A stretch of DNA of 29,068 bases. Source: a virus. Positions 10,505 to 10,576 of the stretch are shown piece by piece (position 1 is the stretch's first letter; each line of letters starts with the position of its first letter). The notes below the pieces were generated by a model. That model was not told the DNA's origin, did no database searches, and saw nothing but the letters and a program-made list of their open reading frames with translations. The position numbers were made by a program, and so were the translations under genes. The stretch lies in IMG/VR virus record IMGVR_UViG_3300013125_000664. One strand, written 5' to 3'.

Positions 10505-10576
10505 GGTGGCGAGGGCGATTGGTTGAGCCTGGGCATTCTAAATGCCCCGTAGGGAGTTCAATTCTCCCCGCCACTT
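10505..10576 (+). tRNA. suppressor tRNA with anticodon CUA (reads UAG amber); amino-acid identity unknown
   Basis: Hand-folded: acceptor GGTGGCG/CGCCACT (G1-U72), D-stem GGC/GCC with GG in the loop, anticodon stem GGGCA/TGCCC, loop TTCTAAA (U33, anticodon CTA at 10538-10540, A37), 4-nt variable loop, T-arm GGGAG TTCAATT CTCCC, discriminator T. Starts 38 nt after the GHKL stop; no promoter of its own was found. Confidence 0.65.

Follow-up and report, generated by a model that had tools for sequence, protein, structure and literature searches.

Introduction

Phage-encoded suppressor transfer RNAs (tRNAs) recode the genomes of crAss-like, Lak, Jade and Agate phages to genetic codes 15 or 4, and a control of timing by this means has been proposed (10.1101/2021.08.26.457843). 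Orphan tRNA-CUA or tRNA-UCA genes have also been described in the standard-code jumbo phages XacN1, RsoM2USA and Atu_ph07, for which no target was identified (PMC5852040, PMC8504454, PMC6102473). Here we analyze a stretch of viral DNA of 29,068 nucleotides (IMG/VR record IMGVR_UViG_3300013125_000664; the whole stretch is termed the window) carrying an amber-suppressor tRNA with anticodon CUA at positions 10505-10576 (+ strand), followed by a gene at 10661-11014 (+ strand) in which an early in-frame TAG, termed the gate, precedes a domain resembling the peptidyl-tRNA hydrolase Pth2. The tRNA and this gene probably constitute a two-part translational module, in which the suppressor would license synthesis of the hydrolase-like protein. 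As in the code 15 and code 4 phages, a phage suppressor tRNA would render an in-frame stop codon readable in a standard-code host. Unlike in those phages, the genomes carrying the module are not recoded in the sequence available, a single gene family is concerned and the stop is confined to its first 10 codons; furthermore, the tRNA is linked to its candidate target, which is tRNA-hydrolase-like and not a structural or lysis gene.

Other systems share individual traits with this locus. The prfB gene, which encodes release factor 2, contains a conserved early in-frame UGA that is passed by a +1 frameshift and senses release factor 2. The gated family resembles prfB by its conserved early in-frame stop (present in 42 of 42 relatives), by an output that would depend on decoding this stop and by a product related to the termination or tRNA machinery; it differs by a downstream domain lying in the same frame and by a dedicated suppressor tRNA, and for the module the feedback exerted by the product is hypothetical. 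The bar minigenes of phage lambda consist of a Shine-Dalgarno sequence, an ATG, one codon and a stop; when they are expressed, dipeptidyl-tRNA is released and cells come to depend on Pth. The ATG-ACN-TAG form found in the gated family has the same architecture, whereas bar minigenes possess neither an in-frame hydrolase domain nor a cognate suppressor, and the leader in the window counts six codons. With the Pth2 hydrolases the module protein shares its fold and the R-x-D and Q..HA motifs; unlike them it is gated and carries HAAHE/FREPD and (E/P)QQ motifs, and a canonical, ungated PTH2 gene is present in the same phage. PTH2 genes have been catalogued in jumbo phages as ribosome-rescue factors (PMC7824862). 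In synthetic circuits, a suppressor tRNA combined with an amber codon in the target abolishes leaky expression (PMC7969014); these circuits are engineered, whereas the module would be a natural counterpart distributed across diverse phages. Our search of the openly accessible literature found no publication linking a phage suppressor tRNA with a gated Pth2-like gene.

As judged by sequence comparison, the pair formed by a predicted suppressor tRNA and a gated gene recurs in dozens of otherwise standard-code large phages. It offers a concrete and conserved target, next to the tRNA, for suppressors whose targets were unknown or which had been interpreted as a step toward recoding. It would also represent a distinct use of a reassigned stop codon, as a start-proximal gate on one gene of tRNA metabolism and not as a change of the genetic code.

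The gene following the suppressor tRNA has a stop codon at its seventh position

The gated gene is preceded by predicted expression signals. A sigma-70-type promoter (TTGACA-17 nt-TATAAT, 10611-10639, + strand) lies between the tRNA and the gene, matches the consensus at 12 of 12 positions and is the best site found between 6900 and 11600; an identical perfect promoter precedes the gated gene in the related loci L030 and L056. Downstream of it are a ribosome-binding site (AGGAAGG, 10647-10653, + strand) located 7 nt upstream of the ATG, a leader of six codons (ATG AAA GAT AAC AAA TTG, encoding MKDNKL, 10661-10678, + strand) with counterparts in close relatives (MKDHKL in L056 and MLDRL in L030), and the in-frame TAG at codon 7 (10679-10681, + strand), which is followed by G at position +4 and lies 103 nt downstream of the tRNA. 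The PTH2-fold domain, recognized both with the Pfam PTH2 profile and in a fold model, occupies positions 10682-11014 (+ strand) and ends with TGA at 11012-11014. The sequence-only reading had assumed that this DNA has no in-frame TAG and hence had no target for the tRNA; this part of it has to be abandoned, as one convincing in-frame TAG is present at codon 7 of the PTH2-like gene. It is also the only credible one in the 38 kb available for this phage, that is the window and 9 kb of flank. Both the tRNA and the TAG are 100% identical across four independent assemblies originating from different samples, and the TAG at 10679 is therefore not a sequencing error. In a scan for start codons, the first ATG, GTG or TTG past the gate was the GTG at 10826, in the middle of the domain, with no earlier alternative start, and the alignment to Pfam PTH2 begins only seven residues after the TAG. 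Separately, an RNA structure that might stimulate read-through was sought after the gate and rejected: the 10-bp hairpin GTTGTTGTTC/GAACAACAAC is a consequence of the VVV and EQQ codons and is disrupted in L056, with covariation at 1 of 20 pairs only, and is thus not supported.

The domain downstream of the gate matches Pfam PTH2 (PF01981) with 21.5 bits (E 3e-4, profile positions 4-104 of 115; the gathering threshold is 23 bits), and no NCBIfam match was obtained for it. When the family profile was compared to the PDB, Pth2 chains made up five of the six best matches (top E 1.3e-4). The AlphaFold2 model of the gated protein has a predicted local distance difference test score of 74.9, and a Foldseek comparison of this model to the PDB returned structures of the Pth2/Bit1 family as the top 14 matches, with a probability of 1.0 for the first 13 and template-modelling scores of 0.45-0.68 (about 0.65). 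At the level of structure prediction, the Pth2 fold can be considered established. In addition to the R-x-D and Q..HA motifs shared with Pth2, an Asp (in FREPD) and a Thr (in AT) are invariant throughout the family. The Lys-rich GKGK loop of canonical Pth2 gives way to a near-invariant (E/P)QQ, and HAAHE and FREPD are invariant motifs peculiar to the family. In the archaeal Pth2 of S. solfataricus, a Lys of the GKGK loop, an Asp and a Thr reportedly serve in catalysis or tRNA binding. The gated proteins apparently form a separate, phage-only subfamily of Pth2 with a putative hydrolase activity.

The gate is conserved across the family

Relatives were collected by protein homology alone, using the protein encoded after the TAG as a query and subsequently family alignments, in the protein database, IMG/VR, the JGI metagenomes and deposited phage genomes. 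This yielded 42 distinct family members with identities of 33-80% and guanine-plus-cytosine contents of 31-61% (41 tabulated members and L073), all of which are phage records or metagenome contigs. Every one of the 42 contains a start-proximal in-frame stop, which is TAG in 40 and TGA in two and is placed at codons 2-10. The common architecture is a start codon (mostly ATG, in a few cases GTG), zero to eight further codons, the stop, and then a sequence of the form ...HF(Y/F)VxVR(T)D...; the commonest gate is ATG-ACN-TAG ('MT*'), and motifs resembling Shine-Dalgarno sequences are found ahead of most leader start codons. The sequence context of the gate is non-random: 39 of 41 members have a purine at position +4, for a purine background of 53%, and none has a T there, and the codon before the gate encodes Thr in 23 of 41. 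At 50% identity and E <= 1e-10, the family comprises 524 clusters. A pattern scan of 185,579 bacterial and archaeal species representatives detected, within its sensitivity, no relatives. Database entries that seemed ungated ('MTQ...', 'MRHLWG...') proved, where checked, to be translations of the TAG or TGA under an alternative code.

It is to be noted that the pattern alone would not have been sufficient. A search of the genome of Acinetobacter phage ME3 for ATG, 1-12 codons and TAG followed by a long open reading frame (ORF) gave 14 matches, and most or all of the 13 others besides the gated gene look like gene junctions with a nearby start. Gated genes can therefore not be found by pattern, and homology is needed. 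Conversely, genuine genes can begin with ATG-ACN-TAG ahead of an open domain, which should serve as a warning for annotation.

The conservation of the gate bears directly on the idea that the locus is decaying and consists of a pseudo-tRNA beside a pseudogene with a nonsense mutation. The tRNA does score below the Rfam threshold and carries A8, and the domain is below the Pfam threshold. Against this, all 42 diverged relatives keep both the stop and a conserved, open domain, the gated gene retains a perfect promoter and a ribosome-binding site, and the tRNA of the related locus L016 displays compensatory changes (described below). Decay is effectively refuted by these observations and its probability is negligible.

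The main mechanistic rival involves no suppression at all. The ATG-(N)-TAG would be a minigene or upstream ORF, the hydrolase ORF would be translated by termination and reinitiation at a start close by, which might be a non-canonical one, and the tRNA would have another job. Two-codon minigenes interacting with Pth are known from lambda bar and count in favor of such a scheme, as do the ATG-TAG-GTG arrangement of mycobacteriophage IkeLoa and the GTG located 6-8 codons past the gate in about one third of the members, which annotators have used as the start. However, the window and many relatives lack any ATG, GTG or TTG for 15 to 55 codons past the gate, and the residues between the gate and any downstream candidate start are conserved (H-F-Y/F before VxVR), so that each candidate GTG is preceded by conserved sequence. 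The preference for a purine at +4 agrees with the classical context rules of suppression. Reinitiation also offers no account of the linkage to a suppressor or of the pairing of a TGA gate with a UCA anticodon, which are presented in the next section. We consider that it fails because many members have no downstream start codon and because the tRNA linkage is left unexplained, and we hold it to be unlikely.

The gate is linked to a cognate suppressor tRNA

The neighborhood of the gated genes was then considered. The counts given here cover the flanking sequence available for each locus, the suppressor being located either upstream or downstream of the gated gene. A matching suppressor tRNA was present in the examined flank of 30 of the 42 loci, within about 1 kb in 26 of them. 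Twenty-nine TAG-gated loci have a tRNA-CUA (called by ARAGORN, except for the truncated copy of L057, which was read by eye), and the TGA-gated L025, the sole TGA case with enough flank, has a tRNA-UCA as its only tRNA. In these sequences, the stop codon of the gate and the anticodon of the suppressor vary together. The suppressor tRNAs are otherwise very diverse in their acceptor and other stems, the constant feature being the anticodon that matches the gate. Twelve loci have no suppressor, nine of which comprise less than 3.4 kb of sequence. Atu_ph07 was sought by tblastn as a second TGA/UCA case and was not recovered.

Cultured phages, including phages of Mycobacterium smegmatis, are among the carriers, which makes the module directly testable. 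Acinetobacter phage ME3 has only four tRNAs, one of which is a tRNA-CTA located about 400 nt upstream of an MT*-gated gene. With respect to the phages known for orphan suppressors, Ralstonia phage RsoM2USA contains an unannotated TAG-gated PTH2-like gene, whereas XacN1 has an ungated version of the gene that is part of a fusion. In Salmonella phage Arash (L071 2510-2584, OQ632216.1) the tRNA neighboring the gated gene was deposited as 'tRNA-Phe' and its anticodon according to ARAGORN is CTA. Cronobacter phage GAP32 has the leader MAQ*, and the cluster C1 mycobacteriophage IkeLoa combines ATG-TAG-GTG with a 'tRNA-Pyl(cta)' situated 250 nt downstream. The related giant phages of Serratia, Yersinia, Erwinia and Pectobacterium probably also carry the gated gene. 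The gene is unannotated in at least 10 deposited jumbo-phage genomes and in others is annotated from a downstream GTG; it has been overlooked, as an ORF with a stop at its beginning is shortened or passed over by gene callers. From a practical standpoint, the module could serve as a natural template for amber-gated expression, with at least 26 diverse natural tRNA-CUA sequences to draw on.

Family members also occur next to tRNAs of another kind. At L023/L024 9919-9995, an initiator-like tRNA-CAU with C33 in place of U33 lies directly upstream of the TAG-gated gene; it presumably bears a close resemblance to E. coli tRNA-fMet. No tRNA-CUA was found within 10 kb on either side in L023/L024. The 362-kb phage contig L029 encodes at 10559-10649 a 91-nt class II tRNA with anticodon UUA, of the ochre-suppressor type, about 350 nt downstream of an ungated distant homolog.

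Structure of the suppressor tRNA

The sequence-only reading had placed an amber-suppressor tRNA of 72 nt with anticodon CUA at 10505-10576, and this could be reproduced. ARAGORN, run on the window, calls five tRNAs, one of them at exactly 10505-10576 (+ strand, 72 nt); the fold is accepted with the anticodon CTA at position 34, and the cloverleaf can also be read from the sequence, though it is atypical. The label 'Pyl' which ARAGORN gives to this tRNA is due to the anticodon only. The acceptor stem is GGUGGCG/CGCCACU, with a G1-U72 wobble pair and U73 as the discriminator, the D-arm is GGCG-AUUGGUUG-AGCC with GG in the D-loop, the anticodon arm is GGGCA-UUCUAAA-UGCCC, the variable loop has 4 nt, the T-arm is GGGAG-UUCAAUU-CUCCC and CCA is not encoded. 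Several elements of an elongator tRNA are present, namely an acceptor stem of 7 bp, an anticodon stem of 5 bp and a 7-nt loop with U33 and a purine at position 37, together with G18G19 and a T-loop of the TTCRAnn type. Position 8 is occupied by A where U8 is near-universal, and the best relaxed match within the Rfam clan is tRNA-Sec, at 26.8 bits.

The closest relative of this tRNA is the tRNA-CUA of the IMG/VR locus L016. The D-arm, anticodon stem and variable loop are the same in both, while both bases differ at acceptor pairs 3-70, 4-69 and 5-68 and at T-stem pair 50-64. Compensatory changes in this single comparison sequence support the cloverleaf fold of the tRNA in the window. Minimum-free-energy folding yields a rod in place of the cloverleaf (z = -3.7), a result that says little in the case of a tRNA. 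A search with blastn of deposited phages, using either positions 7000-14000 or the tRNA alone, gave only tRNA-Leu look-alikes and chance fragments. In IMG/VR the exact pattern of the anticodon arm had no match, and that of the D-arm matched the L016 contig only.

An identity as tRNA-Pyl was considered and rejected, since the anticodon stem has 5 bp instead of 6, the variable loop 4 nt instead of 3, and both GG and TTC are present; in addition, no Pyl genes (PylS/PylBCD) were among the Pfam and NCBIfam matches of the window genes or the pre-computed matches of JGI. Comparison of the suppressors to 103 other phage tRNAs of the same loci revealed no consistent nearest isoacceptor type (best identities 0.64-0.78, mixed). 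Insertion of Gln or Trp is plausible for classical amber suppressors and, by analogy, either of these could plausibly be the amino acid inserted at the UAG gate.

The phage also encodes a tyrosyl-tRNA synthetase (TyrRS), so that the suppressor might be imagined as its dedicated substrate, the two forming an orthogonal pair that inserts Tyr at UAG. This complete, bacterial-type enzyme is encoded about 18 kb downstream of the tRNA, around 140 nt beyond the right end of the window (L003 4914-6113; TIGR00234, 294.8 bits) and directly after the canonical ungated PTH2 gene, which is itself TAG-ended (28472-28951, + strand; Pfam PTH2, 86.8 bits). No tRNA-Tyr was seen in the 38 kb of this phage. Bacterial TyrRS recognizes a long variable arm and A73, whereas the tRNA-CUA has a 4-nt variable loop and U73, and no TyrRS was found in any other locus carrying the module. 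An orthogonal Tyr pair thus appears very improbable.

The available surrounding sequences use the standard code

If TAG were read as sense in late genes outside the window, the phage would be an ordinary case of partial recoding to code 15 and the gated gene would be one of many such genes. In recoded phages the early genes follow the standard code, in-frame stops are found in structural and lysis genes, and suppressors also occur in standard-code relatives (10.1101/2021.08.26.457843). The approximately 38 kb of this phage, whose contigs end within 6 kb of the window, contain no structural genes, and some gene callers have translated family members with TAG as Q, both of which are compatible with this possibility. 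We therefore give stop codon use and coding density in some detail. The 38 genes of the window end with TGA (15), TAA (15) or TAG (8, i.e. 21%); the eight TAG terminators listed in the sequence-only reading (2579, 2974, 3539, 17720, 23587, 24815, 28196 and 28951) were all found at their coordinates. Coding density in the window is 0.892 under code 11 and 0.896 with TAG as sense. Under code 11 it ranges from 0.86 to 0.96 in the window and 18 related loci, and none of the 18 gains by reading TAG as sense. The complete ME3 genome (234.9 kb) has a density of 0.922 under code 11 and 0.919 with TAG as sense, 33 of its 307 ORFs end in TAG, and its capsid, portal, terminase, sheath and lysozyme genes are intact; the gp23 major capsid gene of L015 is intact as well. 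We conclude that the available 38 kb of this phage and the complete ME3 genome are not recoded. The earlier statement that this is not a code 15 genome thus holds for the available sequence, given that TAG as sense does not raise the density, that a single in-frame TAG occurs in 38 kb and that TAG is an ordinary terminator. Moreover, the gate is always within the first 10 codons of one gene family, instead of in-frame TAGs being scattered, and we consider partial recoding to be improbable. Suppression can reasonably be taken to be conditional or weak; for an action on host translation, which the sequence-only reading had also raised, the data speak neither for nor against.

Read-through of the eight TAG stops of the window would extend the proteins by 0-135 codons. 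This leaves room for a scheme in which the main job of the suppressor is elsewhere, in extending TAG-ended proteins of the host or the phage, in host shut-off or in counteracting a defence that targets tRNAs or termination, with the hydrolase in an accessory role as sensor or antidote. Genes for RNA repair and counter-defence that would suit such a scheme abound in the region (RNA ligase, Ro60, Apyc1, ADP-ribosylglycohydrolase, a second PTH2 and TyrRS), and the ungated homolog of L029, which still stands beside a tRNA-UUA, hints at a link between protein and tRNA that goes beyond gating. Against it, ME3, with its four tRNAs only, keeps a tRNA-CTA beside the gated gene. Furthermore, the authors of the XacN1 study searched for extensions by amber read-through and found nothing (PMC5852040), and no second target has been identified. 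This scheme overlaps with the module proposed here and does not exclude it; as the principal explanation we judge it slightly less probable than partial recoding or reinitiation. As a separate observation, two TAG-ended genes of the window are in frame with the next gene (24552-24815 with 24876-25223, and 23240-23587 with 23618-23845). TAG suppression would fuse these neighbors, adding 135 and 85 codons respectively; the arrangement may be a coincidence, with a chance of about one in three for each pair.

A model for suppressor-dependent translation

From the anatomy of the module, the conservation of its gate, the linkage to a tRNA whose anticodon matches the stop and the standard code of the available surrounding sequences, we infer that the UAG gate is read through. 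In the proposed mechanism, the strong promoter ahead of the gated gene would drive its transcription. A UAG interrupts the reading frame after six codons: ribosomes that decode it with the phage suppressor tRNA would go on to produce a PTH2-fold protein of roughly 117 amino acids, and all others would release a hexapeptide. As only the former would make the protein, its output would depend on the balance between charged suppressor tRNA and release factor 1. With the gate placed so early, wasted synthesis would be kept to a minimum. Ribosomes terminate inefficiently on very short nascent chains, which would give the suppressor an advantage, and a purine on the 3' side is the classical context for efficient suppression.

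Several observations weigh against this interpretation. The tRNA of the window is non-canonical and falls below the gathering score of Rfam RF00005 (29 bits). L023, L027 and L030 have no suppressor tRNA despite 10-20 kb of flank; among these, L030 is the closest large relative of this phage and keeps the promoter and the gated gene, with no suppressor tRNA found. Distant homologs in L028, L029 and the N-terminal fusions of the XacN1 type are ungated, and true ungated forms occur only there. Some relatives have a GTG 6-8 codons past the gate and in IkeLoa it follows immediately, so that reinitiation could work in these cases. The absence of the Lys-rich GKGK loop, together with a score below the Pfam threshold, means that hydrolase activity is not assured. 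Finally, the purposes discussed in the following paragraph are proposed by analogy.

The purpose that we prefer is a feedback or licensing circuit, comparable to the in-frame UGA of prfB. In a feedback version, the hydrolase would trim the pool of acylated or peptidyl suppressor tRNA, so that TAG-terminated genes of the phage would still terminate. The module would then be a self-contained device, in which a PTH2-like enzyme acts on the very suppressor tRNA it needs and holds suppression low. In a lock version, the tRNA would serve as a key, so that a hydrolase that may be harmful is made only in the infected cell and at the right time; alternatively, it might unlock a hydrolase directed against host translation or against tRNA-targeting defences of the host. 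We advance these two versions only tentatively. If either were correct, the module would represent a kind of tRNA-keyed gene control that has so far gone unrecognized and is common among large phages, and it would account for the 'orphan' suppressor tRNAs of standard-code jumbo phages.

Neighboring genes and local transcription

Upstream of the tRNA is a block of two genes (7952-10466, + strand), consisting of an ORF of 289 amino acids and a GHKL ATPase gene. The latter matches HATPase_c_3 with 65.6 bits and displays weak similarity to the defence ATPases MzaB and BbrUII. The tRNA begins 38 nt past the GHKL stop at 10466, as the sequence-only reading had indicated. That reading had further treated the tRNA as part of a 'GHKL cassette', a view that we do not retain. 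In L030, which is syntenic and about 70% identical, the segment encompassing ORF7952, the GHKL gene and the tRNA-CUA (7952-10576) is replaced by an unrelated segment of 1.2 kb (8800-10000). No homolog of the ORF7952-GHKL pair was found in any related locus, and a search of IMG/VR with GHKL as a bait returned no relatives. This segment therefore looks like a lineage-specific insertion beside the gated gene. As L030 keeps the gated gene without GHKL and the GHKL pair has no homologs, the tRNA-CUA is best assigned functionally to the downstream gene, and the two-gene block is not part of the module.

A promoter-like site had also been noted at 7076, upstream of tRNA-Leu, and it is indeed present (7076-7104, + strand), with 11 of 12 positions matched. 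It is a possible source of the tRNA-CUA transcript, and co-transcription of the tRNA-CUA from 7076 is plausible. At its threshold, the scan detected no promoter-like site on the + strand from 8802 to 10505.

Downstream of the gated gene, an ORF of 116 amino acids (11104-11454, + strand) is found in the window and in L030, L056, L058 and, more weakly, L016, and is thus a neighbor kept in the closest subgroup. Another subgroup has an ORF of about 92 amino acids between the tRNA-CUA and the gated gene (L012 9676-9963, L013 3315-3590, L015 about 9650-9930), which encodes an N-terminal membrane helix, four Cys in CxxC pairs and a basic tail and has no counterpart in the window.

Other features of the region

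Besides the tRNA-CUA, the window contains at 18559-18646 (+ strand), 3 nt after a tRNA-Glu, an 88-nt tRNA with a long variable arm (class II) and the anticodon CAU (Rfam tRNA, 42.8 bits). It is unusual for a tRNA body of the Leu/Ser/Tyr type to read AUG, or AUA once modified; L030 has a homologous pair. An exact direct repeat of 83 bp (28131-28213 and L003 6302-6384, 3.9 kb apart) brackets the canonical PTH2 and TyrRS genes. In two different genes, it takes in the upstream sequence together with codons one and two (...MT). It could represent a promoter or leader present twice, or else mark a cassette border.

A TROVE/Ro60-like gene (19093-20739, + strand) is preceded immediately by a match to YrlA, a bacterial Y-RNA-like RNA (18953-19069, + strand); this match is weak (19.9 bits, E 0.18) and full length (model positions 1-114 of 114). 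A phage pair of Ro60 and Y RNA at 18953-20739 is plausible on this basis. The window also encodes an 851-residue protein (4334-6889, + strand) with domains of the Major Vault Protein (MVP_shoulder, 100.9 bits; Vault_3, 43.5 bits), so that TROVE and Major Vault Protein domains, both components of eukaryotic vault or Ro ribonucleoproteins, occur in one phage. Finally, genes for counter-defence and RNA repair are dense (2630-2974, 15895-16899, 25766-26800, 26968-27744 and L006) and encode cREC_REC, an ADP-ribosylglycohydrolase, a fusion of HNH and RNA ligase, the anti-Pycsar nuclease Apyc1, a metallophosphatase, two DNA methyltransferases and an NAD-dependent DNA ligase.

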